NCBI GenBank assembly: GCA_020718085.1
Contig: DYDB01000001.1
Location: forward strand, 47,384 to 111,383
Direction: 5' to 3'
DNA: 64,000 bases
DNA from: Micavibrio sp.
Lineage (GTDB): Bacteria; Patescibacteriota; Minisyncoccia; Moranbacterales; GCA-2747515
This document shows, piece by piece, positions 5,065 to 41,730 of the stretch. The position numbers were made by a program, and so were the translations under genes. The number at the start of each line of letters is the position of its first letter. Position 1 is the first letter of the stretch. Under the pieces are notes generated by a model that did no database searches, was not told the origin of the DNA, and saw nothing but the letters and a program-made list of their open reading frames with translations.

Positions 5065-6321
5065 ATGAATATCATTTCTCTTATTATTATTTCGGTCAAA
5101 AGTCTCTTTTCGCATAAGATGCGTACAGTTTTGACGCTTTTGGGTATTATTGTAAGTGTAATGGCGATCATGAGCGTGGTGACAATGGGTGAATCCTTTC
5201 AGTCATATGTGAGCGGTGAAATTGAGGCATTTGGCACCGACACGATCCAAGTAGAAACATCCCTTCCTGAAACGGAGCATGTATCTTCTGAGAATGCATC
5301 AAGCATGGCGATGGGCGTGCAAATTACTACGCTTACGGAAGATGATGCAGAGGCATTGGCGCAATTGCCAAATGTTGTAGCGTATAACACGGGACTTCTC
5401 GGACAGGCGCGGGCGAAGTATGATGATAAAAAAAGATATGTAACAATTTTGGGGTCTAGTGCTGATGCACTAGTTGTCGATCCTGGCGCTGAGATCGCAT
5501 ACGGAAGATTTTTTACAGAAGAAGAACATCGCACATCGGAAAATGTGATCGTTGTAGGTTCCACAGTTGCAGAAGCACTTTTTGATAAGGTGGGGGATGA
5601 AGTGATTGGAACACGCGTTACTCTCAATGATAATCGATATAAGGTGGTGGGTATTTTGAAAGAGCGTGGCGCTTCATTTGGATTTTCTTTTGATGATATG
5701 GTATATATGCCGCATACCACATTACAAAAAAAGATCTTGGGCATTGATTACTTGAGTTACATTACTTTTAAGGTGGGTGATGTGCAAACAATTGATCAAA
5801 CAGCAGAAAGTATGCGATGGATATTGCGCTCGCGTCATGAAATTGATACGCCAAGTGAGGATGATTTTTCTGTTATGACGATCATTGAAGCACAAGACAT
5901 GTTTGATACAATCCTTGGCGGTGTAAATATCTTACTTCTGGCTCTGGCTTCCATTTCTCTTTTGGTTGGTGGAATTGGAATTATGAATATTATGCTGGTG
6001 TCGATTGAAGAACGGCGCATGGAAATTGGTTTGCGGAAAGCTCTTGGTGCGCGTAAGCGAGACATCATCAAGCAGTTTGTGATCGAATCAATTGTGATCG
6101 CATGTGCAGGATCGATCATTGGCATTATTATCACCACAGTTCTTCTCTCCGCTGCATTTGCTGCGATTCGTTATGCAGGGTTTGATGACATTAATTTTTA
6201 TATTCCCACACGAGCAATACTTGTGGCGATGATCTTTTCTGTGTCATCAGGCATTATCTTTGGTGTATATCCGGCACGTCGTGCAGCGGCGATCTCACCC
6301 ATGCAAGCAATCTCCTCGTAA
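5065..6321 (+). CDS. ABC transporter permease, FtsX/MacB type (paralogue)
   Basis: Same architecture and motifs as 3812-5059 (GGIGIMNIM...RRMEIGLRKALGA). Start moved to the ATG at 5065, just after the stop of the upstream gene. Confidence 0.8.
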   Translation: MNIISLIIISVKSLFSHKMRTVLTLLGIIVSVMAIMSVVTMGESFQSYVSGEIEAFGTDTIQVETSLPETEHVSSENASSMAMGVQITTLTEDDAEALAQLPNVVAYNTGLLGQARAKYDDKKRYVTILGSSADALVVDPGAEIAYGRFFTEEEHRTSENVIVVGSTVAEALFDKVGDEVIGTRVTLNDNRYKVVGILKERGASFGFSFDDMVYMPHTTLQKKILGIDYLSYITFKVGDVQTIDQTAESMRWILRSRHEIDTPSEDDFSVMTIIEAQDMFDTILGGVNILLLALASISLLVGGIGIMNIMLVSIEERRMEIGLRKALGARKRDIIKQFVIESIVIACAGSIIGIIITTVLLSAAFAAIRYAGFDDINFYIPTRAILVAMIFSVSSGIIFGVYPARRAAAISPMQAISS

Positions 6322-6357
6322 TAACGGTTCAAATAAAGTAGAAATTGTGTATTTTTT

Positions 6358-6416
6358 GTCATTCCAGACCTGCCTACCGACAGGCAAACGTCGACTTTGT
6401 TTCTAGGATGACAAGC
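6358..6416. repeat. MITE-like repeat, family B (gtcattccGACCctgcctaccgRcaggca...ggatgacaag)
   Basis: Near-identical copy at 27141-27198. The core also occurs reverse-complemented at 13285-13332, and fragments occur at 52694-52719 and 53287-53310. Confidence 0.6.
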
Positions 6417-6431
6417 ATATCAGTTTCATAT

Positions 6432-6459
6432 AAAAAACCGCCACGGAGGGCGGTTTTTT
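6432..6459. terminator. Bidirectional rho-independent terminator
   Basis: aaaaaaccgcc-acggag-ggcggtttttt: a perfect 6-bp GC stem flanked by an A-run and a T-run. Lies between convergent genes ending at 6321 (+) and 6478 (-). Confidence 0.8.
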
Positions 6460-6477
6460 CGTAAATGCGTGGAAAAG

Positions 6478-6720
6478 CTATTTTTTACGTCCAGTAAGGA
6501 GAGCAGCAATGCTTGCGCCGATTGCTGCACCTGCAGCAGCAGAAATTGCAGCTGCCTTTGCCGGGTTCTTCTTGATGAAATCAGCAACTTTCTTTTCTGC
6601 AACAACGAGTTCCTTTTTTACTTTTTTCATCTCTCTTTCAGCCACTTTTTGCAGCTTTTGAGCCTCTTTTTTAGCAATTGCACGCGGGTCAATCTTCTTT
6701 TTTGCGGTTTTTTGTACCAT
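6478..6720 (-). CDS. Small Lys-rich protein with C-terminal Gly/Ala-rich hydrophobic segment (function unknown)
   Basis: 80-aa ORF. Charged coiled-coil-like N-terminal part, then AAAISAAAGAAIGASIAALLTG followed by RKK. Ends at the bidirectional terminator. Confidence 0.5.
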   Translation of the reverse strand: MVQKTAKKKIDPRAIAKKEAQKLQKVAEREMKKVKKELVVAEKKVADFIKKNPAKAAAISAAAGAAIGASIAALLTGRKK

Positions 6721-6897
6721 TGTTTTATTTTTACATATTACACGCCCTCATTATAACACATTATGTAAAAATACCAACAAAAAGCCATTTTTTATGGTAT
6801 TATGAGATACTTGACAAAAAAGCAATTTTCTGCTATTATAGTTGGTTAACTCGACGATGTACGGAGATGTCTATCATAATAGAAATTATATTGTTTT

Positions 6898-7860
6898 ATG
6901 AACAGCAATCAACAAAAAAAGATCACTGTGATCATTCCTACATTTAATGTGGAGGATTTGATTGAGCAGGCAATTCGCTCTGTTTTATGGGCAGATGAGA
7001 TCTTTGTTGTGGACTCTTTTTCGACAGATCGTACAGTTGAGATCGCAAAAAAATATGGTGTGCGTGTTGTACAACATGAGTATGTGTACAGTGCAAAACA
7101 GAAAAACTGGGCAATTCCACAAGCAAAAAATGACTGGATACTTCTTCTTGATAGTGATGAGGTTGTAACAGATGAGCTTCGTGATACGATCCAACACATG
7201 CTTGCAACAAATAATATTGAATCATTTGATGGATTTGGTATTGCACGCAAACACTACTTTTTGGGAAAGTTCTTGCGATGGGGCGGACGATATCCATTGT
7301 ATAATATTCGATTATTCCGTAAGTCATGTCGCTATGAAGATCGCAATGTGCATGCACATATCATTCTTGCAAAAGATCGTATGAAAAATATTTCCGGAGA
7401 TATCTTGCACTATAGTGATCGATCATTGGAACAGTTTTTTGAGAAATTCAATCGATATTCCACATGGCAAGCAAACTACATGTTGCGTGTCTATGAACAT
7501 GGTATGACAAAGATCTCGTGGACAATGTTTTTGACAAATCCGTTTTATGCAAAGGCGATGATCAAAGACTTATGGACGTTTATTCCGTTGACGCCGCTCA
7601 TTCGCTTTGTATACATGTTCGTATTACGGTTAGGATTTTTGGATGGACGACACGGATTTATGATCGCATTCTTCTATGCATTTCAAGATTATGTTGCAAA
7701 AACCAAATATCTCGAGATGCGTAAAAAATCACCGAAGATGCGTCTCACATTCCAAAAGTATGTTGCAAAAAGTTGTGCATCACTCTGGCAATCACATAAA
7801 GGTTTTGGTAGCTATGTCGATAATGACTTCTCAATTAAAAGTAATAATGTAACCATATGA
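6898..7860 (+). CDS. Glycosyltransferase family 2
   Basis: N-terminal ITVIIPTFNVEDLIEQAIRSV...VVDSFSTDRT...LLDSDE (GT2 DxD-type signature). Confidence 0.75.
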   Translation: MNSNQQKKITVIIPTFNVEDLIEQAIRSVLWADEIFVVDSFSTDRTVEIAKKYGVRVVQHEYVYSAKQKNWAIPQAKNDWILLLDSDEVVTDELRDTIQHMLATNNIESFDGFGIARKHYFLGKFLRWGGRYPLYNIRLFRKSCRYEDRNVHAHIILAKDRMKNISGDILHYSDRSLEQFFEKFNRYSTWQANYMLRVYEHGMTKISWTMFLTNPFYAKAMIKDLWTFIPLTPLIRFVYMFVLRLGFLDGRHGFMIAFFYAFQDYVAKTKYLEMRKKSPKMRLTFQKYVAKSCASLWQSHKGFGSYVDNDFSIKSNNVTI

Positions 7861-8678
7861 ACCATATAACAATTACAGACATGATGTCACGATGGCGTAT
7901 GCTCTTGGTGTTCACAATTGTGTTTGGACTCATTGCATTCATTGTATCTGCACTGCTTCCTGCGAAGTATCAAAGTGACATACAAATGATCGTGATCCAA
8001 AAACAAGCGGATGACAAGGTGGACGCATTCAGTGCGACAAAGTCTGCAGAGTTCTTGAGCAATATTTTTGCACAAGCGATCTATACTACGTCGTTTTTCA
8101 ATAGCGTGCAGGATGCACCGTTTGATGTGCGACGCACATTTTCTCATGATCCGGAAAAACGTCAAAAAGAATGGGAAAAATTCATCAATGTAAAAAAAGT
8201 GAACAATACCGGTATTCTCAAGATCAGTGTATATGACGAATCTCGCAAAACAGCGGAAGAAACAGCAAAAGCGATCGCATATATTTTGACCACGAACAGT
8301 GAATCATATCATGGTGGTGGCGCGCGGGTGGAAGTGCGTTTGATCGACGGACCAAATACACCGCTTCGACCGACAGTGCCATATATTATTCCCAATACGA
8401 TCGTTGGTGCACTTGGCGGCATGATCATTGCAATGATACTTATCTATTTTTTCCCGGCAGTACAATTTAGTACGTCACATACGCCCATAGATCAATATGC
8501 GCAAGAAGTGGAAGAAATGATGGTATATGAGCCGACCACAGTTGTATTCGCACCGGAAGAAATGCAAGAAGATATCGTATCTGAACATTTCAATAAGGTG
8601 GGTGGGACGATCGAATTTGATCCTGAGGTGGAGGAACTTCACAAGCGGATCAGTGAATTTCGTACAACAAACGGTTAA
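7857..8678 (+). CDS. Wzz-like polysaccharide chain-length determinant (PCP family)
   Basis: N-terminal TM, central periplasmic segment and C-terminal TM (GALGGMIIAMILIYFF). Start overlaps the GT2 stop. Lies in a glycan-synthesis cluster. Confidence 0.55.
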   Translation: MNHITITDMMSRWRMLLVFTIVFGLIAFIVSALLPAKYQSDIQMIVIQKQADDKVDAFSATKSAEFLSNIFAQAIYTTSFFNSVQDAPFDVRRTFSHDPEKRQKEWEKFINVKKVNNTGILKISVYDESRKTAEETAKAIAYILTTNSESYHGGGARVEVRLIDGPNTPLRPTVPYIIPNTIVGALGGMIIAMILIYFFPAVQFSTSHTPIDQYAQEVEEMMVYEPTTVVFAPEEMQEDIVSEHFNKVGGTIEFDPEVEELHKRISEFRTTNG

Positions 8679-8863
8679 AAAGATATTGCATGCACACGTG
8701 ATCCATGATACACTGACCTACTTAATAGGAAAGAATCAAAGGATCACACATTCTGCTGTGTAGCACAAAGATTTTTGTGCTACATGCAGAGTCAGAAAAG
8801 GTCTGATTCTAGAATTTGTTCTTATAAAAGAAGTATTTACATAGCCTAAGGAGGGCAAAGAAG

Positions 8864-9628
8864 ATGAGAAAATTGATGGCAGTTCTGGTAGTCTTGGTGT
8901 CATGTGCATTTGCGTCAAATTCAATTGCGGCTGTGCACGTCTATGGAAAATTGGAAAGGGTAGCGGCAGTCGTTGTGTATCTTGAGGGTCAAGGTGCACA
9001 AGATGTTTATGCCCATCCCACATCAGAGGTCATGGGAACGTACAAAGGAAAGCCATGGCCCGGTGTCAATGTCGCGACAGTGGAAAGCAGTGATGGATCC
9101 CAGGGTATTTTCGTTCCGGTTTCCAACAGCGTGCTTAAGGAAGGATTGTGCGATGATCAAAAGACGCTTCTGCGAACTTTTGTTCCACCGCCAGCTCCAG
9201 CAAAAAAAGCTCCGGCAAAGAATCTCTATGCTGGTACAGTGCCTGCAAGTTCCATGCGTACCATTCAGAGCGGTGACTCATGTGATGAGCGCCAATTTTC
9301 TGGTATGGTAACAAAGGGAGCGCTCGAGGCATCAGGCGGACAAACCGTCGATGTACTTGAGCTTCATAGACGTGCCGGAAAATCCATGGAATACAAGGCC
9401 AAACGCTTGCGAGTAGATGCATCGTCCGGTATTGCCATTCCGATGGTATGGTCCTCAGACGGAAGCTGTGTACGAAAGTACTCCGAGCAGTCCTTGACTG
9501 AGTCAGAGTTACGGACGCTTCTTTCAACCTCCGAATCGTTGCGGTCTACGACTGTAAGTGATATTGGGCGAAAAAACTTCGGTGCACATCTCACCGAAGG
9601 GGTATATCTGATATATCCGACCAAATAA
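8864..9628 (+). CDS. Secreted protein of unknown function (signal peptide), paralogue of 9812-10249
   Basis: Strong RBS aaggaggg. Signal peptide MRKLMAVLVVLVSCAFASNSIAA. The C-terminal about 110 aa align with the downstream ORF (FSGMVTK...KAKRLRV...GIAxP). Local GC is higher. Confidence 0.6.
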   Translation: MRKLMAVLVVLVSCAFASNSIAAVHVYGKLERVAAVVVYLEGQGAQDVYAHPTSEVMGTYKGKPWPGVNVATVESSDGSQGIFVPVSNSVLKEGLCDDQKTLLRTFVPPPAPAKKAPAKNLYAGTVPASSMRTIQSGDSCDERQFSGMVTKGALEASGGQTVDVLELHRRAGKSMEYKAKRLRVDASSGIAIPMVWSSDGSCVRKYSEQSLTESELRTLLSTSESLRSTTVSDIGRKNFGAHLTEGVYLIYPTK

Positions 9629-9688
9629 GGTGTAAAAAAAGAGCATTGGTCCCCATGTGGATCCGTGCTCTTTTCCTTTTTTCAGCTC

Positions 9689-9717
9689 TTGACAGCGAAG
9701 TGTTTTTGGTATATAAT
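9689..9717 (+). promoter_or_regulatory. Consensus sigma70-type promoter (TTGACA-17-TATAAT)
   Basis: TTGACA at 9689-9694, a 17-nt spacer, and TATAAT at 9712-9717. Lies about 95 nt upstream of the 9812 start. Confidence 0.6.
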
Positions 9718-9811
9718 ACATGGTTCTATGGTGATCGCAGTTCTGTGACACTGAGAATAGGGAATGGTTGTTCTTATTAATAATCATCGAAATCCCAAGG
9801 AGGAAACTGCG

Positions 9812-10249
9812 ATGAAAAAGACCCTGGTGTTGCTGGTTGGGATGTGCGTAGCAGGTTGGGTGGCGAGCGCTTCTGCGGTGGACTTCGTGCAAACGGATGG
9901 AGCGATCTGTAAGGATCGCCCGTTCTCAGGCATGGTCACCAAGGCTGTGCTTGAAGTCGGTCCTTCCGATGCAATCGAAGTGATCGATCGCGGCGCAGAG
10001 TTCAAGAAGCCGGCCGCACGCTTCAAGGCCAAGCGTATCCGAATTGAAGAGGACGGCATTGCGTATCCGCTCATGGATAGCAATGACAAAAAATGCGTCG
10101 CCACAACCGCATCTGCGATGTTTGAAGAGCGAGAAGTGGAAGCCGGACTTCTCATGCCTGGCGAAAAGCTTCGTGCCCTAAGCGTCACGGATGAAGGTCG
10201 CAACAAGATCGGCGAATACAAGACGGTCCAGGTCTGGATCATCGAGTAA
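9812..10249 (+). CDS. Small secreted protein of unknown function, paralogue of 8864-9628
   Basis: RBS aaggagg. Signal peptide MKKTLVLLVGMCVAGWVASASA. Shares the Cys-bracketed domain with the upstream ORF. Confidence 0.6.
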   Translation: MKKTLVLLVGMCVAGWVASASAVDFVQTDGAICKDRPFSGMVTKAVLEVGPSDAIEVIDRGAEFKKPAARFKAKRIRIEEDGIAYPLMDSNDKKCVATTASAMFEEREVEAGLLMPGEKLRALSVTDEGRNKIGEYKTVQVWIIE

Positions 10250-10261
10250 GCGCCGGTAACA

Positions 10262-10310
10262 AGGGTGTTGCAAGAATGCTATAATGGCAAACTTGCAACA
10301 CCCTTTTTTC
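10262..10310 (+). terminator. Rho-independent terminator
   Basis: agggtgttgcaag...cttgcaacaccct: a 13-bp perfect stem followed by TTTTTT. Confidence 0.8.
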
Positions 10311-10371
10311 ATTATAAAATATATCTATTTATCTTTTTTCAAACAGTAAGTAATGATCTAATAACATACAT

Positions 10372-10480
10372 GTCTTTGCGAGGAGCGGAACGAAATATAG
10401 CGACGAAGCAACCTTTGGTCATTGTATAAAAATATAACATATTAGTATGGGATTGCTTCGTTGTCTCTCCTCGCAAAGAC
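10372..10480. repeat. MITE-like repeat, family A (TIR gtctttgcgaggag...acgaagcaa / ttgcttcgt...ctcctcgcaaagac)
   Basis: A 109-bp element with about 30-bp terminal inverted repeats. Related copies lie at 49047-49204 and 58552-58649. Confidence 0.6.
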
Positions 10481-10631
10481 AACTAGATGAAAAGTTTTTT
10501 GGACTGCCACGAATACAAGTTATCCTTGCAGAGACAAAAAGGCGTCTTCGCGAAGTCGCTTTGCGACTGTGGCGAACTAGAGAACTTACATCATTTCACA
10601 TTTTGTACGTTAAATGCACTATCGAAATTGA

Positions 10632-10660
10632 TTGACAAAATATGAAAAATATGATATAAT
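10632..10660 (+). promoter_or_regulatory. Consensus sigma70-type promoter (TTGACA-17-TATAAT)
   Basis: TTGACA at 10632-10637, a 17-nt spacer, and TATAAT at 10655-10660. Lies about 135 nt upstream of the lipoprotein gene. Confidence 0.65.
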
Positions 10661-10797: not shown

Positions 10798-11787
10798 ATG
10801 AGATACTACGTTATGTATGTGTTCTGTTGTCTCGTATTGTTGTCCGGTTGTGCCGCTGGAAACCAGGGTAAGGTGCCCAGTTTTGCAATGGTGCAGGGAG
10901 AACAAGGTGTTGCTCTGCCGCATCCCGATGCGGTGGAAGATAAAAACAAGGGGGAGACGCTCGTAACATTTACGGCGATCATTCCACCAGAATTTATTGT
11001 TGAAACACGGGGAACGCTCAAATCCGTGTATCCACTGGTGGGTGCACATATGAGTGATCCGAGCAAAAAGATCGAGGACGGCTTCTGCTATATTGAGGGA
11101 AGTAAAGCACTCTACAAAAATCCGTGGGGACTTATTCCCGCGGTATGTACTGTGACTGGTACAAAGAAGCAATTCGAGAAGTACCGTTGGACAATTGTCA
11201 ATCAAGATGGTGGTGTGTGGGCGACTTCGCCAACAGCAACCGCGATGATCGACGACAAGCAGTGGGACTTCATGAAATTCGAAAATGATTTCACACATCG
11301 CACGGAAGTTTTGACCAAGGTTGGTGATACTCTTTATGAGATCAACGAGTTCTGGAAGGAACGGTACCGTGAACTTGGGCAAGTTCCCAAGAACGATGTA
11401 TATGAGATCGTGATCGATCCTAAAAACCCAAAATGGCAAGCATATCGTGAGAAGCTTATCAAAGAGATGGGTTTTTCGATTGCATTGCCAAACGGTGAGC
11501 CTGTCGTGTCGACGGTTGACCGTGACAAGATGGTTGAGATCCTTGCTGAAGTACCACGTGTGACAAAATGGCAGAAGATGGTGTCACATTTGGGCGTGTC
11601 AATTGGCACGCCGGAGGTCATGGCGATCTCTGCTGCAAGCAGCATATTAAACGGCGGTATAGCTGCGTTGTTCGACAACCAGCTTTATACAAATACGGCC
11701 AGAGGTCTCGCACAGCGACGTGATTTTGCGCCGCATATGAGATTTTGGTACGATGAAGTTCAACAAGCAATGAGGAGCAGACAATGA
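10798..11787 (+). CDS. Lipoprotein of unknown function
   Basis: RBS ggagg. Signal peptide with lipobox LLSGC. Stop overlaps the start of the next ORF (ATGA). Confidence 0.6.
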   Translation: MRYYVMYVFCCLVLLSGCAAGNQGKVPSFAMVQGEQGVALPHPDAVEDKNKGETLVTFTAIIPPEFIVETRGTLKSVYPLVGAHMSDPSKKIEDGFCYIEGSKALYKNPWGLIPAVCTVTGTKKQFEKYRWTIVNQDGGVWATSPTATAMIDDKQWDFMKFENDFTHRTEVLTKVGDTLYEINEFWKERYRELGQVPKNDVYEIVIDPKNPKWQAYREKLIKEMGFSIALPNGEPVVSTVDRDKMVEILAEVPRVTKWQKMVSHLGVSIGTPEVMAISAASSILNGGIAALFDNQLYTNTARGLAQRRDFAPHMRFWYDEVQQAMRSRQ

Positions 11788-13181
11788 GAACACGAACTTT
11801 TCTATCGGCATTGTTGCTTTGTGTTGTGGGTGCTGTTAGTGCCTTCGCACAGAGCGGATCTGACACGTTGGGACTTTCTTCCAATGTTGTTTCAACACTC
11901 AACAAGTCTTCCGTATGTGCCACTGTGGTGCAGACGGGAGAGAAAATCACCTTTGCCAATGTTGGCGGGGTGAAAGTCGGCAAAACCGATAGTGGTATCT
12001 GGATGCAATTTATCGCATTCCAAGACAAACTCCCGTTCAAAGGAGCAAATGCCATTATCGCAAAAGGTGGAAACATTGAGCGCAAGGTTGTAGATGTCAT
12101 GCCCTGTGAAGGAAATGCATCAATTGCAATCGCATCAATGACCACCGAACCGGCACGCATTGCGCGACCGAATCGCCGAGTTGCGGAGGAGTTATCTGCA
12201 GCGCAAACCCAAAATGTGGGAGCGCAACGGCAGATCATGCCAAAAGCACTTCCGCAAGGCGTGGAAGAGGTTGAGCGTGAAGTTGCAAAACTTTTCCCGC
12301 AAGATGAAGTTGTAGAAGATAGTGGTCCAAAACCGGTCGTCGCTTACGATAGTAAGAACGCCGCCGGTGAAGGATCTGTCTTTGACAATCTGGACGCAAA
12401 GGTTACAGTTACACGCATGGGTTCCATGAGTGGCAGTGATCGCAAGCGTGATGGGAAAAGCATTACTGTTGAAGGTACGTATTATCAACCGGCGTGGGAT
12501 GGTAAGGGTCGCATAGGCGCCCATGCCACTTACACCAATGGCGAAAGTAATAGCAAAAACCCCGCCAATGGTCGTACAACAAATACAGATTATTGGAAGG
12601 TTGGCGCTGGTGGTGTATCTGAGTATGAGTTTGCCCCCAATACAGATTTCGTTGTAGAGGGTGATCTGCTCTATCAGGACACCAAGAGTCGTATTCCAGC
12701 AAAAAATTTCCGCTCCCATCAAACGGAGTGGCAAGCAGATCTCGATCTGTCGATTGCCAGCGATGACAATCGGAAAAATGGCTATGCCTTATTTCCGTAT
12801 TGGGAAGTCGGTGCCAGGGCAATCAAGTCATTCGGTGTGGATTATTCCGACACCAGCAATAAGAATGACTGGTATGATAACAGTCGCTACAGCGTCTACG
12901 GTAATGTGGATCTCTATGATTTCCATGCTGGAGATGTATGGCGATTCACTCCAACTGCCGGTTTGGAAGGTGGGTACATGGTTGGGAAAAGTGCTTCTTT
13001 CATAGAGCCTGGACTCAGCATCAAAACCGCCTACAAAGGCAAAGAGATCCTCGAGACGGGTGTTGACTGGCGATTCCTCTCCGGAGATAATCGTTGGAAC
13101 GCATTTGGTACGATCAGACCACTGCGCATTGGACGCATTCTGTGGGCCGAAGGCACCGCAGATTACGAATCAAAACGTTAA
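11784..13181 (+). CDS. Secreted beta-rich protein (outer-membrane beta-barrel-like), function unknown
   Basis: Signal peptide ...AVSAFAQS. The C-terminal half is rich in alternating aromatic/Gly residues (YxY, WxV). Translationally coupled to the lipoprotein. Confidence 0.5.
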   Translation: MRTRTFLSALLLCVVGAVSAFAQSGSDTLGLSSNVVSTLNKSSVCATVVQTGEKITFANVGGVKVGKTDSGIWMQFIAFQDKLPFKGANAIIAKGGNIERKVVDVMPCEGNASIAIASMTTEPARIARPNRRVAEELSAAQTQNVGAQRQIMPKALPQGVEEVEREVAKLFPQDEVVEDSGPKPVVAYDSKNAAGEGSVFDNLDAKVTVTRMGSMSGSDRKRDGKSITVEGTYYQPAWDGKGRIGAHATYTNGESNSKNPANGRTTNTDYWKVGAGGVSEYEFAPNTDFVVEGDLLYQDTKSRIPAKNFRSHQTEWQADLDLSIASDDNRKNGYALFPYWEVGARAIKSFGVDYSDTSNKNDWYDNSRYSVYGNVDLYDFHAGDVWRFTPTAGLEGGYMVGKSASFIEPGLSIKTAYKGKEILETGVDWRFLSGDNRWNAFGTIRPLRIGRILWAEGTADYESKR

Positions 13182-13200
13182 GTAAAGACAAACCTCAACC

Positions 13201-13245
13201 GAAGCCGTGTAAACTTATAATAGTTTACACGGCTTCTTTCTTTTG
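13201..13245 (+). terminator. Rho-independent terminator
   Basis: gaagccgtgtaaact/tataat/agtttacacggcttc: a 15-bp perfect stem followed by tttcttttg. Confidence 0.85.
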
Positions 13246-13284
13246 TAGCGAAAAATTGATAAGATGAATGTGTGAGAGTCAATT

Positions 13285-13332
13285 GTCATTCCCGCGTAGC
13301 CTGCCTGCCGGTAGGCAGGGTCGGAATGACAA
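13285..13332. repeat. Family B repeat core (reverse orientation, palindromic)
   Basis: gcctgcctgccggtaggcagggtcggaatgac is the reverse complement of the B1/B2 core. It is flanked by a gtcattcc / ggaatgac inverted pair. Confidence 0.5.
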
Positions 13333-13402
13333 ATGTACAGATTTTTTATCAAATTATTCCGTATCAAAAATATAAATAAGGATTTAATGTAAACCAATTA
13401 TT

Positions 13403-13942
13403 GTGAAGAAAAAAATACTTTTAATTTCAGGTACGATCTTTGCACTTGTGTGTACAATGTATGCGGTCTTTTTGATGTGTGCTGCGAGTGTGGAGTATGG
13501 GATATTTCTTATACAAGAAGAACAATCGGATCATTATATAAAGATGCATGAAAAGATAAAACGTGTGGACATGCTGATGCAAAAAGAAATACCAGCATCT
13601 CTTGTAGTGATACAGACATCCAAAAAAATTTCAAACAGTGAAAAGATCACTATTATGGAGCAATTGCGCACCCTGGAGGAAGTTGCGGCGGAAATTGAGC
13701 GGGAAACAATGTACTATGATGAAGATAATACCGTACACATGTTCTTTCCACCGGAGGGGCGTACGGTAACGTATTTTCAGGAAGCGCGTAATACGCCACT
13801 GTATATTTCTCGGTGTGTACGAAGTATGGAGCAGGCGATCTTTGCAACTACTCTTGTCAAAGATCAAAAAAACATCGTACAGGAAAACATGATGTTGCTA
13901 CAAGAAGAATTGCGACGTTTGTCAGTGATATCAAATTATTAG
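13403..13942 (+). CDS. Hypothetical membrane-anchored protein
   Basis: 179-aa ORF with an N-terminal TM helix. No recognisable motifs. Confidence 0.45.
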   Translation: MKKKILLISGTIFALVCTMYAVFLMCAASVEYGIFLIQEEQSDHYIKMHEKIKRVDMLMQKEIPASLVVIQTSKKISNSEKITIMEQLRTLEEVAAEIERETMYYDEDNTVHMFFPPEGRTVTYFQEARNTPLYISRCVRSMEQAIFATTLVKDQKNIVQENMMLLQEELRRLSVISNY

Positions 13943-14076: not shown

Positions 14077-15447
14077 CTAAAGAAGGTGTCTATTTTTAGT
14101 TGTTCCATAACAGGAAAGTGCACAAGCAACAAGTGTCCATAAAAACCACTGCACTGCAGTACCGCGCCAAATATTTGAGCTCATACCAAAACCGATTTGC
14201 GCGATAAAAAGCAAAATGATCACAAGGACGAAGAGTCGTTCGTTACTCAATGGAAGTGATCGGTAAGTTCTGATGAGGTGTACAAGTGTCATGCCCAAAA
14301 GAAATGTGAAAAGTCCAAAACCGATAAGGCCGGTTTCCTGCAGCACTTTGATCATGTCATTGTGCGTATAGGGATTGCCTGCATAATAGCCTTGTTCTTT
14401 TTCAAATATGGCAATCTCTGTTCCGGCGCCATAGCCAAATGTTGGGGAAAGTTGCCATGCGGCAATGGCATTTTTCCATTGTTGTATACGCCAGCGAATT
14501 GAGCTGTCTGCCGGAGGGTTGTAGATCTCTTCGATGCGATCATGCACGGTTTGTGATGCAAAGAACAATGCAACGGCAATGGCACATGTGATAAAAAGGA
14601 TCTTTGGTGCACGGAGGAGACTGAACAGTGCAAAAAATAATATAAAAGCAAACCATCCACCACGACTGAATGTCAAAAGCAAAATAGTGATCGTGATCAG
14701 TAAAAGTGCAATTGTGGCATTGCGATTTTGCAATTGAGCGAACTTTTCGAATGAACGATATGTGAGCAGAGCAACAATGATCAAAAGAAATGAAGCAAAC
14801 GAATTAGGGTGTTTAAATGTGCCAAAAAGACGACCTTCTGTGCCGGTGTTGTCGCTGTATCCTGTGCTTGTGGCAAGTTGAAAGATCGCAAAAATGAGAG
14901 GGAGGATCGATGCGATGATAACGGACGTGAGGATCGTTGTGCGTGCGTGCGGCATTTTTTCACAAAGTATGTATGCGCTGAAAAATGCGGCAAATATACT
15001 GATGAGTCGCAATGTTTCCTGAAATGTTGCTCCCTTGTCGATTGAATAAAATACGCTGATAGCGGAAAATAAAATGAAGAGTCCAAAAGAGACGATGAGC
15101 GGTTTGTGGGAAAGTTTGGTGTAATTTGTTATAATGAGCGCAGTGCTCATGATGATGAGCATGATGCCCAGAATTGCGGCAATATTGAGTGTAACAGTTT
15201 CGGAAAGCGAAACGGAAAAAAAACTATCCAGAAAATCTACAGATGCACGCATGGTGAGCAATGCAATAAAACCCCACAAGGGTTTGTAAAAGAAGATTGT
15301 GGTGATCAGGTAAAGTATGGCCATGCCGCCCGTGACGACAGCAGGTAAAAGAAAAGAGATGTGCAAGATCAAGATCACAACAAAACCAATGATGAGAATG
15401 ATCCCTGTTGTTTTATGTGATATGATCGAGAGATCACTGCTTTTCAT
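14077..15447 (-). CDS. O-antigen ligase/polymerase family membrane protein (Wzy/WaaL-like)
   Basis: More than 10 predicted TM helices. A periplasmic loop carries SRGGWFAFILF, the typical O-antigen ligase signature. Confidence 0.7.
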   Translation of the reverse strand: MKSSDLSIISHKTTGIILIIGFVVILILHISFLLPAVVTGGMAILYLITTIFFYKPLWGFIALLTMRASVDFLDSFFSVSLSETVTLNIAAILGIMLIIMSTALIITNYTKLSHKPLIVSFGLFILFSAISVFYSIDKGATFQETLRLISIFAAFFSAYILCEKMPHARTTILTSVIIASILPLIFAIFQLATSTGYSDNTGTEGRLFGTFKHPNSFASFLLIIVALLTYRSFEKFAQLQNRNATIALLLITITILLLTFSRGGWFAFILFFALFSLLRAPKILFITCAIAVALFFASQTVHDRIEEIYNPPADSSIRWRIQQWKNAIAAWQLSPTFGYGAGTEIAIFEKEQGYYAGNPYTHNDMIKVLQETGLIGFGLFTFLLGMTLVHLIRTYRSLPLSNERLFVLVIILLFIAQIGFGMSSNIWRGTAVQWFLWTLVACALSCYGTTKNRHLL

Positions 15448-18149: not shown

Positions 18150-18614
18150 ATGAGAACAAAAAATACACGCAGAGGGTTTACGCTTATAGAATTGTTGATC
18201 ATTATAGCGATCATTGGTCTTTTGGCGGCAAATATTTTGGTGGCACTTTCTGCCGCAAAAGTGAAAGCAAATCGAACGGCTGCATATGCGGAGGCACGAC
18301 ACGTATTGTCAAAAATTGAGGAATGCACGCTCGCAAAAAGTCCTATGACTATTCCAAATGCAAACAATTCGGTATGTCCCGCATCGGAGAATGTAAAATG
18401 GCCTGATCTTACAAAATATGACTTTGCGTATACTGCACGTGCTTATTCGGATGGATTAGGTCAATACTATTTTTCCATCTATCGTACAGATGGTGCTGTG
18501 CCGCCAAGTGCCCATAATAATGAGATTTTCTGTTGTAAGAAAGATGGTTGTGATGTCATAACTGATTCAACACCCGGATCAGGTAATACATGTGCAACAC
18601 ATGCAGGATTTTAA
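18150..18614 (+). CDS. Type IV pilin / pseudopilin (prepilin-type N-terminal cleavage/methylation domain)
   Basis: RRGFTLIELLIIIAIIGLLAA is the class III signal peptide and conserved N-terminal helix. Cys pairs in the C-terminal part. Confidence 0.7.
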   Translation: MRTKNTRRGFTLIELLIIIAIIGLLAANILVALSAAKVKANRTAAYAEARHVLSKIEECTLAKSPMTIPNANNSVCPASENVKWPDLTKYDFAYTARAYSDGLGQYYFSIYRTDGAVPPSAHNNEIFCCKKDGCDVITDSTPGSGNTCATHAGF

Positions 18615-24119: not shown

Positions 24120-25220
24120 ATGAAAGCAAAAGTTCATAAAATTGAAGACTTTGGTTATGATCCATTTTTTGAATCCAATCGTGTAAAACTCGGACTGGAT
24201 GTTTTTCATGTGGCTCGAGTGATCTCTGAACAAAAGGGAATTTATAAGGTTAAAAATGCCAATGGTGAATATTTGGCAAAAATAACCGGAAAACAAATTT
24301 TTAAAGCCTCTTCTAAGGAAGATTATCCGTCTGTGGGTGATTGGGTGGCAATTTCTGAATTGGAAGTGCATAAAGCAATGATCCGTAGTATATTACCGAG
24401 GAGAACAGTGATGAAGAGGAAATGCAGTGGTAAAAAAAATGAAACCCAAATAATAGCAACGAATATTGACGTGGCCTTTGTCATTGAATCAGTTGATAGG
24501 GACTATAATTTGAATCGATTTGAAAGATATTTTGCCATAGCGAATGATGGGGGCATAAAACCAGCTATCATATTGAACAAAGTAGATCTGATCTCCAAAG
24601 AAGAATTATATGCAAAAATTTCCCAAATAAAAGACAGATTCAAAGATGTTGAAGTCATTCCAACTAGCGCTGTGACGGATGAAGATCTGGATGAATTAAG
24701 GGGATATATAAAAAAGGGTAAAACGTATTGTTTTCTAGGTTCCTCCGGAGTGGGAAAATCTTCTTTGATAAATAAACTGATTGGTAGTGGGAGTGAGATA
24801 AAAACTGGAGACGTCGGTTTACGTTCCGGGAGAGGAAAGCATGTAACTACAACGAGAGAAATGTATTTTTTGAAAAATGGTGGCATTGTAATAGATACTC
24901 CCGGGATGCGAGAGGTGGGGATGACTGACACAACTGCTGGTGTAGATAATTTATTCGATGAGATCACAACTCTCGCCAAGAAATGTAAATTTATCGACTG
25001 TGATCATATTCATGAACCTAAATGCGAAGTTTTAGTTGCGCTAAAAGCAGGCCTGTTGGACAAAGAAAAGTATGCCAATTACATTCGATTAAAAAAAGAG
25101 TCTGAACATTATGAGATGACTCAACGTGAAAAAAAAGAAAAAGATCGAAAATTTGGTAAATTTATGAAAAATGCCAAGAAGGATTTGAAAAAGTATAAAA
25201 ACAAAAATTATAGTGTGTAA
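24120..25220 (+). CDS. rsgA: RsgA/YjeQ-type circularly permuted GTPase (ribosome small-subunit biogenesis GTPase family)
   Basis: N-terminal OB-like region. G4 NKVDL precedes G1 GSSGVGKSSLIN. GRGKHVTTTRE and IDTPGMRE motifs. C-terminal zinc finger CKFIDCDHIHEPKC. Lys-rich tail. Confidence 0.85.
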   Translation: MKAKVHKIEDFGYDPFFESNRVKLGLDVFHVARVISEQKGIYKVKNANGEYLAKITGKQIFKASSKEDYPSVGDWVAISELEVHKAMIRSILPRRTVMKRKCSGKKNETQIIATNIDVAFVIESVDRDYNLNRFERYFAIANDGGIKPAIILNKVDLISKEELYAKISQIKDRFKDVEVIPTSAVTDEDLDELRGYIKKGKTYCFLGSSGVGKSSLINKLIGSGSEIKTGDVGLRSGRGKHVTTTREMYFLKNGGIVIDTPGMREVGMTDTTAGVDNLFDEITTLAKKCKFIDCDHIHEPKCEVLVALKAGLLDKEKYANYIRLKKESEHYEMTQREKKEKDRKFGKFMKNAKKDLKKYKNKNYSV

Positions 25221-25346
25221 TCTGTAATTGGCGGTGGATTCATCGAAGATGGCTCTCGATAAATAGTTAATTCCCACTAAGTCTAAGTTTGCATTTTCTT
25301 AACAAAATGCTACTTTTAGAATAGCTTAATATTTAGATACAACCTA

Positions 25347-25661
25347 ATGTTCTGGCGAAAGCACAAAAATATACATTTAATTTCAGCAGTCTTTCTTGGT
25401 TGTTTATTTTTGTCTGGGTGTGACGATTCAAACAATCGACTAGAGGAAATTGAACAAGCAAGAGAAATGGGCTACGAGATGGGAATGGAGGAGGGTTATA
25501 GTGTTGGTATAGATGATGTAAAATCCGGACTTGTGTCAATTGAGGATACTGAGATTTGCTTGGATTACTATGAATTAGGCTATCAAGATGCTATCACTGA
25601 TATCGAGAAATACGGAATAACAAGAGTAAAGAATGAAGATTTGCCAAGAGAAGTTCAATAA
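25347..25661 (+). CDS. Small acidic lipoprotein, hypothetical
   Basis: Signal peptide with lipobox FLSGC, followed by an acidic E/G/Y-rich 80-aa region. Confidence 0.45.
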   Translation: MFWRKHKNIHLISAVFLGCLFLSGCDDSNNRLEEIEQAREMGYEMGMEEGYSVGIDDVKSGLVSIEDTEICLDYYELGYQDAITDIEKYGITRVKNEDLPREVQ

Positions 25662-25745
25662 TGATTATGAATGCAAAAAATTGTTAAAAATATTTTTGAC
25701 TAAATTTATTTTTTTAGTAAAATCCTGTTGAGTATTTGAAAAAAT

Positions 25746-26384
25746 ATGACCGAAGAAGAATATAAGAATAGATTTGAAAAGTTATATCAACTTCTAACAA
25801 GAGCTCATTTGTGTTTTTTTGTTTGGAAGGGTCTTAAAAATGTAAAATATCAACCTCAATTTGACAGAGATAAAAATTTTTGGAGTGCTGTCGTTCCTTC
25901 CCTAGAGTCATCGTGGCTTCAATCTTTAGCTAATATTTACGAAGAATCAGATTACAGCAGAAAGGATAAAATTATATCGGTATATTCATTGATAAATAAT
26001 CAAAAAGATGTAGAAAGAAAGGTGAGAGCGGAAGTTATTATTAATCAGAATCAATCCATAATTAAAAACATTTCAATTCTTAGGAATAATCAGTTAGCTC
26101 ATTATAATGCCAATCATTTATTAAACCCAAAAGAGTTATTGGAAAAATTTCCTGTGAAATATGGGGAAGTGGAAAGATTGCTAGAAATAACTGAAGAACT
26201 ATTACGTTGTCTGCACCCCGAAAACAATCATAGTTTTTCGTTTGAGGGATTTGATAAGGAATCACAACGGGATTCAACTTTAATTATGGATAGGATTGAG
26301 TATTATCTAAAGCAGGAAAAGAAACACTATGAGAAAATGAAAGATGAAAATAAGTATGTTCATTTTCCGCCTCAAAAAGACTGA
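25746..26384 (+). CDS. Hypothetical protein with an Rx5H (HEPN-like) motif; candidate Abi-type protein
   Basis: 212-aa all-helical-looking ORF. LRNNQLAHYNANH contains R-x5-H in a predicted helix, as in HEPN RNase families (Rx4-6H). No other motifs. Confidence 0.5.
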   Translation: MTEEEYKNRFEKLYQLLTRAHLCFFVWKGLKNVKYQPQFDRDKNFWSAVVPSLESSWLQSLANIYEESDYSRKDKIISVYSLINNQKDVERKVRAEVIINQNQSIIKNISILRNNQLAHYNANHLLNPKELLEKFPVKYGEVERLLEITEELLRCLHPENNHSFSFEGFDKESQRDSTLIMDRIEYYLKQEKKHYEKMKDENKYVHFPPQKD

Positions 26385-26539
26385 TTATTATCAAATTTTT
26401 TCTTAAATCGGATGTGTATACATTCGTTTTTTTCATAAAAATATCCCTAAAAACATTTATCACATCGTACAGATACAAAAAAGAGATTTTATGCAATCTC
26501 TTTTCGTGCTGAGAATTATGATATAATCACAGAATTCAT

Positions 26540-27109
26540 ATGCAAAACACTATCGAAAATAAAACTATTCAAAAAGAAGATTGGTCTGGAAAAAAACTAG
26601 GATCATTTGAAATTTCTGACTGTACATTCAACGGATGTGATTTTACGGAAACTGATTTTTCCGGAACGAAGTTCATTGATTGTATCTTCGATGGATGTAA
26701 TTTCTCGAACTCAAAAATATTAAATTGCAGTTTTTGCGACGTTACTTTTAAGGAATGTAAAATAAGTGGTGTGGTCTTTGGTGAAATAAATAAATTCTTA
26801 CTTTCTTGGAAATTTTATGATTGTGCCATAGATCTTTGCAGTTTCAGTATGTTGGATATCAAAAACTCCGAGTTTATTGCATGTGAGATCTACGAAACTG
26901 ATTTTGTGAACACTGATCTTAGTGAGTCTAATTTCTCACAATCTGATCTGAGGGGGAGTAAATTTCAAGATACAAATTTAAGTAAAGCTAATTTTGTGGG
27001 AGCAATAAATTATTTTATAGATCCTACAGCCAATAAGATCACAAAAGCGAGATTTTCATCACCGGAAGTGTTAGCTCTGCTTGCGGGTTTTGATATAACC
27101 ATTGAATAG
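26540..27109 (+). CDS. Pentapeptide-repeat protein (Qnr/MfpA-like fold)
   Basis: Tandem A(D/N)(L/F)xx pentapeptides throughout (CTFNGCDFTETDFSGTKFIDCIFDGCNFSNSKILNCSF...SDLRGSKFQDTNLSKANFVGA). Confidence 0.75.
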   Translation: MQNTIENKTIQKEDWSGKKLGSFEISDCTFNGCDFTETDFSGTKFIDCIFDGCNFSNSKILNCSFCDVTFKECKISGVVFGEINKFLLSWKFYDCAIDLCSFSMLDIKNSEFIACEIYETDFVNTDLSESNFSQSDLRGSKFQDTNLSKANFVGAINYFIDPTANKITKARFSSPEVLALLAGFDITIE

Positions 27110-27140
27110 ATTGAGAGCTTGCGCAATTATCATTATTTCT

Positions 27141-27198
27141 GTCATTCCGACCCTGCCTACCGGCAGGCAGGCTTCGACTTTGCTCAGGATGACAAGTG
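27141..27198. repeat. MITE-like repeat, family B (best copy)
   Basis: gtcattccgaccctgcctaccggcaggcaggcttcgactttgctcaggatgacaagtg. Internal palindrome cctgcctaccggcaggcagg. Near-identical to 6358-6416. Confidence 0.6.
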
Positions 27199-27249
27199 CG
27201 TAATTTTTGAGAGTATCAGTTTAGAATAGGGCTTATCTTATTTTTTTAA

Positions 27250-40573: not shown

Positions 40574-40791
40574 GTTTGTATCATGGCCATTGTAAGAGAA
40601 AAGCATTGTAAAACCCCTATTTTCAAGGGGTTTTTTGTTAAGATTGTGAAAAACCGCATAAATAAAGGGTTTTTTGGATATAAATATTGACAAAAATGTA
40701 ATAATGGTGTATAATAACAATTCAATCGTTTATTTAAAAATTTAATATATAAACCCAAATATCGCCTTCACAAAAAGGCAAAGGAGGCGAT

Positions 40792-41730
40792 ATGCCTACA
40801 GTAATTGATGTCGCAATTGAACTTTTCATTGCCACAACCATGGTGTTGTGTATGATGAGACTGATCCAAAAATGGTCATGGGACAAAGTGATCATGACCA
40901 TGTATTTGGTTTTGATTGCGGTTGTTTTCGGTGACTATGTCACCATCGAATCTATCAAAAATGTGTTGCCAATAATTCTTGATTTTTTGAAAGATTTTGG
41001 TATTCGCATCCTTGCGATCGTTCTCATGATCGCATGTGCTTTACAGATCGCACACCTGGTTGGCATCTTTTTCAAAAGTTGCGTCTGGCAGTTTTTTGTA
41101 AAAGCTTTTCAGGTTACTCTGCAAGTCATCGCTGACATTCATCCATGGGCTGCAAAAGTGGTCGGTGGCATGATGTGGGTAGGCGGTTTGGTCAAAGTTG
41201 CTCTCAGTCATTTTTATGATATCGAGGGTGATGATGAGGCAGAGGAAGTTGTTGATAAAGTACGCGAGCTACATCTTATGAGTTTGTTGTACGATATCAT
41301 CGACTATTGGGCTGCGGGACTCTGTGCTCTGCTGGTGTCATATCTGGCAGAGTATCAATTCACGTATGCTCAAAAATCAGGAATCGTCTGGATTGTGATC
41401 GATGTTCCCTTTGCGTTGAGTGCTTTATACGGATGCTTTAAATCCGGTAAAGATCTCACGTGGGGTGAGGCACACAGACGAGCTCATGATGGCGTATACG
41501 CATACAACCGTATCGCAGGATGGATCTACAGGGTCGTCCAGCATGTGGTTGGCACCATTTGGGATGGACCGGAGCAGATTGCAATATTTTATGCGCAAGA
41601 ACTCAGGACCAAAACCAAGATGGTTATGCTCGCCATCGCCCTGAGTATTCCTCAAGCTGCATTTTGGGCTTGGGCGTACACACTTGGAAACGATGCGATT
41701 ATCGTTCGTTTTCTCGAGTGGCTCGGTTAG
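40792..41730 (+). CDS. Hypothetical polytopic membrane protein
   Basis: RBS aaaggagg. Multiple TM helices. No motifs. Confidence 0.5.
   Translation: MPTVIDVAIELFIATTMVLCMMRLIQKWSWDKVIMTMYLVLIAVVFGDYVTIESIKNVLPIILDFLKDFGIRILAIVLMIACALQIAHLVGIFFKSCVWQFFVKAFQVTLQVIADIHPWAAKVVGGMMWVGGLVKVALSHFYDIEGDDEAEEVVDKVRELHLMSLLYDIIDYWAAGLCALLVSYLAEYQFTYAQKSGIVWIVIDVPFALSALYGCFKSGKDLTWGEAHRRAHDGVYAYNRIAGWIYRVVQHVVGTIWDGPEQIAIFYAQELRTKTKMVMLAIALSIPQAAFWAWAYTLGNDAIIVRFLEWLG

Follow-up and report, generated by a model that had tools for sequence, protein, structure and literature searches.

Paralogous proteins with one common C-terminal domain are encoded near genes for wall polymers in the WxL/Csc clusters of lactobacilli and enterococci, and again in Clostridioides difficile, where CWB2 cwp genes lie beside the PSII locus. 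The genes for S-layer and other very abundant envelope proteins, such as slpA of Lactobacillus and ompA of E. coli, have strong promoters, long structured 5' leaders, and terminators of their own. The bacteria of the candidate phyla radiation (CPR) make up a large share of bacterial diversity, and the majority are believed to spend their lives attached to other cells; the composition of their surfaces is little known. Here, a locus from one CPR lineage is compared with these systems. It lies in a stretch of 64,000 nucleotides of contig DYDB01000001.1 (assembly GCA_020718085.1), the whole of which is called the window below. Two adjacent genes in it, P1 and P2, encode predicted secreted paralogues that share a C-terminal domain of about 120 amino acids, each in a transcription unit of its own, inside a cluster for surface polysaccharide. 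For these proteins, a role at the cell surface or in the envelope is plausible.

The two open reading frames (ORFs) exist as an earlier note on this DNA had given them, with 254 and 145 codons for amino acids (Table 1). That note had also described the products as paralogues carrying Sec signal peptides behind strong ribosome binding sites, and this description holds. BLASTP aligns residues 128-250 of P1 with residues 20-144 of P2 (36% identity over 126 amino acids, E 3e-20). At its N-terminus, P1 has MRK, the core LMAVLVVLVS, and a cleavage site between SIA and A; P2 has MKK, the core TLVLLVGMCVAGWV, and a site between ASA and V. Thus, in a heuristic pattern check (not SignalP), both proteins and all of their full-length relatives show a positive n-region, a hydrophobic core of at least 10 residues, and a small-x-small site, as expected for Sec export. 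One public annotation starts P2 at an in-frame ATG at 9764 (161 amino acids) and P1 at Met5 (250 amino acids); the starts used here are favored because the positions of the Shine-Dalgarno sequences and the orthologues fit them. The ratio of nonsynonymous to synonymous divergence (dN/dS), taken against the orthologous locus L004, is 0.097 for P1 (0.12 in its N-terminal domain, 0.034 in its C-terminal domain, or CTD) and 0.084 for P2. Therefore, both genes are protein coding and under purifying selection. Taken with the predicted export signals, P1 and P2 are real, Sec-exported paralogues of an uncultured member of Candidatus Moraniibacteriota, a CPR lineage.

Identical P1 and P2 proteins are found on contigs, one of up to 389 kb, of the groundwater metagenome ERR628383. 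Its project, PRJEB6121, is cited by studies on Altiarchaeales biofilms of subsurface sulfidic springs (PMC4460559, PMC4975002). Among 185,579 species-representative genomes, a single one, labeled Candidatus Moraniibacteriota, holds a relative.

The BLASTP alignment spans nearly all of mature P2, which implies a shared module of about 120 amino acids. Its bounds are residues 128-252 of P1 and 20-145 of P2, about 120-125 amino acids running up to the C-terminus. The earlier note had proposed a domain of about 65 amino acids bracketed by cysteines. The cysteine pair stands, being invariant in 32 of 32 aligned domains; the extent does not, as 65 amino acids are only the first half. Numbered from P1 residue 128, the invariant positions in this alignment are C13, E39, and C75, with G20, K51, K53, R54, E97, and T117 conserved in at least 90% of the sequences. 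A K-x-K-R motif is near-invariant, and a C-D-E motif is mostly conserved. In the proteins that consist of the CTD only, P2 among them, the mature chain holds exactly two cysteines, and these probably form a stabilizing disulfide. The N-terminal domain of P1 is not a second copy of its CTD; hhalign gives the pair a probability of 0.2%, and internal duplication is rejected. No further copies of the domain, or of its partner modules, occur elsewhere in the window.

Outside the window, a word-indexed search of 5.8 billion proteins returned 10 family clusters. An exhaustive search of 1.84 billion representatives with a hidden Markov model (HMM), of the kind that the earlier note had suggested for metagenomic proteins, returned 38 matching clusters, 29 of them with E at or below 1e-10. 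One weak match, P0041, is merely a eukaryote-like tandem repeat. Many of the family proteins, of 137-163 amino acids, are built like P2, from a signal peptide and the domain. In others, the domain is preceded by an alpha/beta module of the P1 type (VHVYGK...GKPWPGVNV...VPVS...GLCxDQK), by a borderline LysM followed by a long, repetitive, coiled-coil-like stretch, or by a cysteine-rich module (KQYVTING...). To judge from these architectures, the domain is a mobile module, used alone or placed C-terminal to N-terminal modules of at least three unrelated kinds. Modules of the P1 and LysM/coiled-coil types are also found joined to unrelated C-termini (P0025, P0029, P0044-P0046). The LysM assignment is close to the cutoff: P0009 scores 20.9 bits with PF01476, exactly the gathering cutoff, and P0007 scores 14.6, while in the PDB the LysM-type N-terminal profile matches the LysM effector Ecp6 best (E 0.0025). 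Several family members have candidate lipoboxes. The isoelectric points of the CTDs span 5.0-9.6, and the idea of a uniformly basic, polyanion-binding domain is ruled out by this span. The gene at the P2 position in L006 (129 amino acids) could not be assigned to the family (probability 0.8%).

The earlier note recognized no known domain here, and none was found. P1 and P2 have no match in Pfam, even at E values up to 1, LysM (PF01476) included, and they have only chance-level matches, far under the cutoffs, in NCBIfam and PHROGs. The shared domain has no match in PADLOC. A Pfam scan of 40 family members gave one match in all, a LysM in a single member that lies apart from the shared domain; none of the 40 carries an anchoring domain of the SLH, CWB2, WxL, or SLAP type. 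A profile search of all PDB sequences with the shared domain gave chance-level matches only, and no PDB chain resembled the domain by sequence profile or by fold. No relatives turned up when viral and JGI metagenome sequences were scanned with the family patterns, and no description of the P1 or P2 proteins was found in the literature. By these comparisons, the domain of about 120 amino acids is previously undescribed, being absent from all libraries searched. With no characterized family matched, and with homologues evolving at dN/dS below 0.1, the ORFs escape the two outcomes that the earlier note had named as grounds for giving up its proposal.

Structure prediction had also been suggested in that note. 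With an alignment of 40 sequences, AlphaFold gave a confident model of P1 that has a mean predicted local distance difference test (pLDDT) score of 89.9, with 97-98 in the CTD and 91-95 in the N-terminal domain; residues 113-122 of the linker are below 50. This run supersedes an earlier one on P2 with 10 sequences (pLDDT 54). The CTD is predicted to be an alpha+beta unit that begins with a short strand and a helix, continues with four strands, and ends in a short helix and two strands. The family possibly represents a new fold.

The signals for expression around these genes are strong and recur across the loci. The earlier note had placed a perfect consensus promoter ahead of each gene. This is right for P2, whose two promoter hexamers are both kept in L004 and have near-consensus equivalents in L006-L008. 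It is wrong for P1, since no site scoring at least 9/12 lies ahead of that gene. P1 has instead a non-consensus promoter with an extended -10 element, under the scanner threshold, whose pattern (TTGCAT or TTGCGT with TGnTAnnCT) is kept in five of five loci. A 7-bp inverted repeat, GTGATCC (8698-8704) and GGATCAC (8740-8746), flanks the P1 -10 element and the predicted start site, and co-varies among loci. One of its arms lies in the untranscribed promoter spacer; the repeat could therefore be an operator rather than an RNA structure. The exact sequence TTGACA-17-TATAAT occurs at 3 sites in the 64 kb, where 0.02 are expected.

Each of the two genes also has a terminator of its own. The terminator with a 13-bp stem that the earlier note had seen after P2 is present as described. 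The one after P1 is kept in L004 and has equivalent hairpins in L006-L008. In all five loci, each small paralogue follows a terminator of the preceding gene, and has a TTGACA-17-TAnnAT promoter of its own, a leader of about 90 nt, and a Shine-Dalgarno sequence of the AGGAGG type. Read from these elements, every family gene in the loci examined is transcribed as a unit by itself: it has a strong promoter of the sigma-70 type, a leader that is conserved, a strong Shine-Dalgarno sequence, and an intrinsic terminator.

The leader of P1 deserves separate treatment. The earlier note had reported a perfect 26-bp palindrome upstream of P1. An inverted repeat is indeed there, with arms of 11 bp (8759-8769 and 8774-8784) and a 4-nt spacer in place of 26 perfect bp, and it lies inside a longer stem (8754-8788), the first of two leader hairpins, H1 and H2. 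Across the five loci, 99.1% of the cells in the leader stems are paired, against 28-51% in slid registers. Seven pairs are changed on both sides, which none of 500 shuffles reaches, and the z-score of the fold is -4.2. Because the sequence of the stem varies while its pairing persists, the palindrome is best taken as the central part of an RNA hairpin rather than as a fixed site for protein binding. The spacer between the Wzz-like gene and P1 is kept in all five loci, despite divergence of the proteins to about 45% identity. Against L004, its first 146 or so nt have 5 differences (about 97% identity), while P1 has a synonymous divergence (dS) of 1.36. The two-hairpin leader is found again ahead of a 250-amino-acid paralogue in L008. 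Rfam 15 gave one chance match to the P1 leader (18 bits, where the gathering score is 48), and the leader motif found four stretches elsewhere in the metagenome collection, all chance, with no long hairpin and no family gene near. The probable role of the hairpins is to stabilize the mRNA or to attenuate transcription. Downstream of H2 comes a moderately T-rich stretch, flagged as terminator-like, so that the leader could be an attenuator instead of, or besides, a stabilizer.

Five Moranbacteria-type loci were compared (the window, as L003, with L004, L006, L007, and L008). Each has, in this order, a GT2 glycosyltransferase gene, a Wzz-like gene, and one to three family genes: L008 has three in tandem (384, 250, and 145 amino acids), and L007 has two (370 and 144). 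These are followed by genes for a membrane protein of about 177 amino acids (its position varies), a lipoprotein of about 334 amino acids, and an exported protein of 431-465 amino acids. Next are Wzy_C, which is encoded on the opposite strand, GT4, a flippase (Polysacc_synt), and a pilin; RF-1 lies farther along. The comparison of L008 covers its upstream part, the contig stopping soon after the membrane-protein gene. Orthologues stand in the same order in the five loci, with about 45-90% protein identity. As these loci are laid out, the family genes are at a fixed place within a surface-polysaccharide cluster of the Wzx/Wzy type in this lineage. In the window, the Wzy_C-family gene (14077-15447, minus strand) has E 5.9e-22, and the same cluster holds a type IV pilin-like gene (N_methyl; 18150-18614, plus strand). 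The Wzy_C-family protein may be a PglL/PilO-like O-oligosaccharyltransferase for proteins, or else a ligase or a polymerase.

Table 1. Features of the P1/P2 locus, in nucleotide positions of the window or, where marked aa, in residues of the protein
Feature	Position	Strand	Description
P1 promoter	8686-8714	+	TTGCAT (8686-8691), 17-nt spacer, TACACT (8709-8714) with TG extension; extended -10 TGATACACT (8706-8714)
P1 leader hairpins	8754-8809	+	in 5' leader of about 140 nt; H1 8754-8788 (holds the palindrome), H2 8789-8809
P1 Shine-Dalgarno sequence	8848-8854	+	AAGGAGG, 9 nt ahead of ATG; read from sequence
P1 gene	8864-9628	+	254 aa; read from sequence, AlphaFold model, dN/dS
P1 signal peptide	about aa 1-23		
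P1 N-terminal alpha/beta domain	aa 24-107		
P1 Pro/Ala/Lys linker	aa 108-127		
P1 C-terminal family domain (CTD)	aa 128-252 (nt 9245-9619)		
P1 intrinsic terminator	9637-9686	+	imperfect 19-nt arms 9637-9655/9656-9674, T-rich tail
P2 promoter	9689-9717	+	exact TTGACA-17-TATAAT
P2 Shine-Dalgarno sequence	9797-9803	+	AAGGAGG, 8 nt ahead of ATG 9812; read from sequence
P2 gene	9812-10249	+	145 aa; signal peptide aa 1-22 (ASA/VD), then family domain alone, aa about 24-145
P2 intrinsic terminator	10262-10309	+	13-bp stem 10262-10274/10292-10304, 17-nt loop, T-run
Lipoprotein-gene promoter	10632-10660	+	exact TTGACA-17-TATAAT; promoter and leader about 93% identical to L004
Lipoprotein gene	10798-11787	+	LSGC lipobox; co-conserved, GC-elevated
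465-aa exported protein gene	11784-13181	+	co-conserved, GC-elevated
Block-closing terminator	13201-13236	+	15-bp stem; ends the GC-elevated block

The lipoprotein gene and the gene for the 465-amino-acid protein keep their order in L004, L006, and L007. The C-terminal half of the 465-amino-acid protein is rich in Gly and aromatic residues and looks beta; in a lineage presumed to have one membrane, a barrel-like protein would be surprising. A third co-conserved neighbor is a membrane protein of 179 amino acids, the three genes together spanning 10798-13942. None of these three proteins has relatives in any library searched, and their profiles have no PDB match. Between the P2 terminator and the lipoprotein promoter (about 10310-10610), the window has an AT-rich insertion of about 300 nt relative to L004. 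The insertion is single-copy in the window and carries a perfect 15-bp inverted repeat (10371-10385 and 10467-10481, 81 nt apart), and public annotation calls a 62-amino-acid ORF inside it.

The earlier note had drawn attention to the guanine-plus-cytosine (GC) content of this region. It is elevated, at 0.49 in P1 and 0.55 in P2 against 0.41 in the window, though the rise is not confined to these two genes and continues through the next two, to about 13,200. The note had found it compatible with acquired DNA or with a surface module expressed at a very high level. The elevation of these genes recurs in all orthologous loci, independently of the local background, and in L007 a membrane-protein gene that lies between elevated genes is not elevated. 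The block is thus not a recently acquired island, since the elevation is gene-specific and is found in all of the orthologous loci. Codon bias of the ribosomal kind is ruled out as the cause by a mismatch in codon usage: the block correlates with the ribosomal and EF-Ts genes of the window at 0.83, where the bulk of genes correlates with the ribosomal ones at 0.95. The ribosomal and EF-Ts genes have GC at third codon positions of 0.30-0.43. Amino acid composition is part of the rise, with GC at second positions of 0.41-0.47 in P1, P2, and the 465-amino-acid gene against about 0.29-0.40 in most others. The dS against L004 is 0.74-1.65 in the block and 0.32-0.78 in the glycosyltransferase, Wzz, and flippase genes that flank it. 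Within the block, three of the four genes are at 1.0-1.65 and the 465-amino-acid gene at 0.74, and the promoters and leaders are nearly identical. This suggests that the coding parts had a different recombination history and that the leaders are under strong constraint; recombination with GC-biased repair would fit the pattern of GC and dS.

What might these proteins do? The reading favored here, held to be about as apt to be right as wrong, is that P1 and P2 would be made in abundance as cell-envelope proteins. The shared domain would be their working end, binding or assembling the glycan of the surrounding cluster, or else other envelope proteins as partners. The domain would be held at the wall or membrane by the N-terminal modules, which vary (LysM, the P1-type domain, and, in some members, lipid anchors), and P2 would be a free form of it. 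A more ambitious version must be called doubtful. There, the domain would be a new fold, and would act as the working end in an envelope system specific to this CPR lineage that includes the lipoprotein, the 465-amino-acid protein, and the small membrane protein of the Wzx/Wzy cluster, and that builds a coat or mediates attachment to a host, under a new structured leader RNA common to several family genes.

Several points weigh against the envelope-protein reading. The codon usage of the block is unlike that of ribosomal genes, which leaves the promoter, Shine-Dalgarno, and leader signals as those from which high expression is argued. Expression, localization, glycan binding, and the disulfide are all proposed on indirect grounds. 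The fold comparison covered known structures, so that the domain may yet match an uncharacterized predicted fold. The isoelectric points give no uniform charge signature for the binding of an acidic polymer. A distant member, P0031, stands in an unrelated context (L015) without polysaccharide-synthesis genes, so that the link to a glycan cluster may hold in this lineage only. Last, the invariant Glu and the charged residues of the domain are equally compatible with an enzyme.

This last point is the starting point for a different, if unlikely, explanation, in which the domain is a small secreted enzyme (a hydrolase, a lyase, or a modifying enzyme) acting on peptidoglycan or on the polysaccharide of the locus, with the LysM and other N-terminal modules targeting it to the wall. 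The invariant Glu39, the near-invariant Glu97, the C-D-E and K-x-K-R motifs, the place of the genes within a glycan cluster, and the borderline LysM of the long paralogues would all suit such an enzyme; a LysM followed by a C-terminal catalytic domain is a common layout of wall hydrolases. Yet the domain resembles no known hydrolase, lyase, or transferase in sequence or fold in the libraries and the PDB, it has no invariant His, and no invariant nucleophile besides its two Cys. Further, two or three tandem paralogues with the same domain, each behind a very strong promoter, fit structural proteins better. The exchange of modules would also suit proteins that an episymbiotic CPR bacterium secretes as effectors or toxins, built like polymorphic toxins from interchangeable N-terminal delivery modules and C-terminal effectors. 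This is judged rather improbable. The resemblance lies in the combinatorial exchange of N- and C-terminal modules among family members, LysM/coiled-coil and P1-type modules being joined to unrelated C-termini, and in the different, possibly mobile, context of L015, with its transposase and ParG. Polymorphic toxins, however, pair a variable C-terminal toxin with a non-exported immunity gene, an arrangement not found at the loci: the same CTD is repeated several times per locus, no adjacent gene is a candidate for immunity (the genes downstream encode paralogues with signal peptides or envelope proteins), and the purifying selection on the domain is strong. Nor did PADLOC, PHROGs, or the viral scans offer a relative.

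It is more improbable still, although compatible with the envelope-protein reading rather than exclusive of it, that P1 and P2 are mainly substrates for O-glycosylation, the Wzy_C-family protein acting as a PglL/PilO-like oligosaccharyltransferase to give a glycoprotein coat. Enzymes of the Wzy_C family do include O-oligosaccharyltransferases, and here such a gene shares one cluster with a flippase, glycosyltransferases, and a pilin gene. The disordered linker of P1, PPPAPAKKAPAK, is rich in Pro, Ala, Lys, and Ser; no linker of this kind is present in P2 or in most of the members that have the CTD alone, and ligase, polymerase, and oligosaccharyltransferase are indistinguishable at this sequence level. 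The last explanation, that the block is a recently acquired foreign island, or that its ORFs are spurious products of GC-rich DNA, is hardly credible. It would account for a GC content above that of the surroundings, for the atypical codon usage, and for a dS above the flanks in three of four block genes. It is opposed by the same-order orthologues in five loci, by the gene-specific elevation of GC, and by a dN/dS of about 0.09 together with a confident AlphaFold model.

Some further observations stand apart from this argument. The third exact TTGACA-17-TATAAT (40687-40715) lies ahead of a gene for a multi-pass membrane protein of 312 amino acids (40792-41730). The gene has a strong GGAGG, and its product, which falls in no Pfam family, may be another strongly expressed, uncharacterized protein. 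A GC-poor segment (25000-27200; GC 0.31), with an AbiU2-type HEPN gene (25746-26384) and a pentapeptide-repeat gene (26540-27109), may be a small defense island. In L015 (region 5078-10459), P0031 immediately follows four large genes that have no annotation; a DDE transposase and ParG are encoded on the same 96-kb contig. One neighbor there, of 631 amino acids, has a C-terminus weakly similar to the N-terminus of the 465-amino-acid protein of the window (BLASTP E 0.01); the L015 neighbors have no PHROG or Pfam match.

The analysis yields a domain family, defined by its boundaries and invariant residues and modeled with confidence, and a conserved module of five uncharacterized genes inside a surface-glycan cluster, together with a covarying leader RNA. 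Family, module, and leader are candidate components of the envelope, or of attachment, in one CPR lineage. The scope is narrow: the family has 38 clusters, and about 185,000 reference genomes contain one species with it. Also, lineage-specific secreted proteins with no assigned function are common in CPR genomes. Were the domain indeed a new fold that serves in building the CPR coat or in attachment to a host, the significance would rise.

Set against described systems, the family shares different features with each. Seven of its members (P0007-P0010, P0012, P0013, and P0015) are laid out like modular wall proteins anchored by LysM, with a signal peptide, a borderline LysM, a coiled-coil-like stalk, and the C-terminal family domain. 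P1 and P2, however, have no LysM, and the CTD is not of the NlpC/P60, M23, amidase, or Rpf kind. The WxL/Csc and CWB2 clusters differ in having anchoring domains for which there is no counterpart here (no WxL, CWB2, or SLH), and in the family described here the shared domain also serves as a whole protein. The resemblance would lie in tandem paralogues built on one domain, varied other modules, signal peptides, and a place beside genes for surface polysaccharide. Finally, P1 and P2 are small proteins (13-25 kDa when mature), known here from their sequences, and the family genes are organized as S-layer-type genes are: monocistronic, with consensus or extended -10 promoters, conserved leaders of 90-140 nt that hold a stable hairpin, strong Shine-Dalgarno sequences, and terminators.

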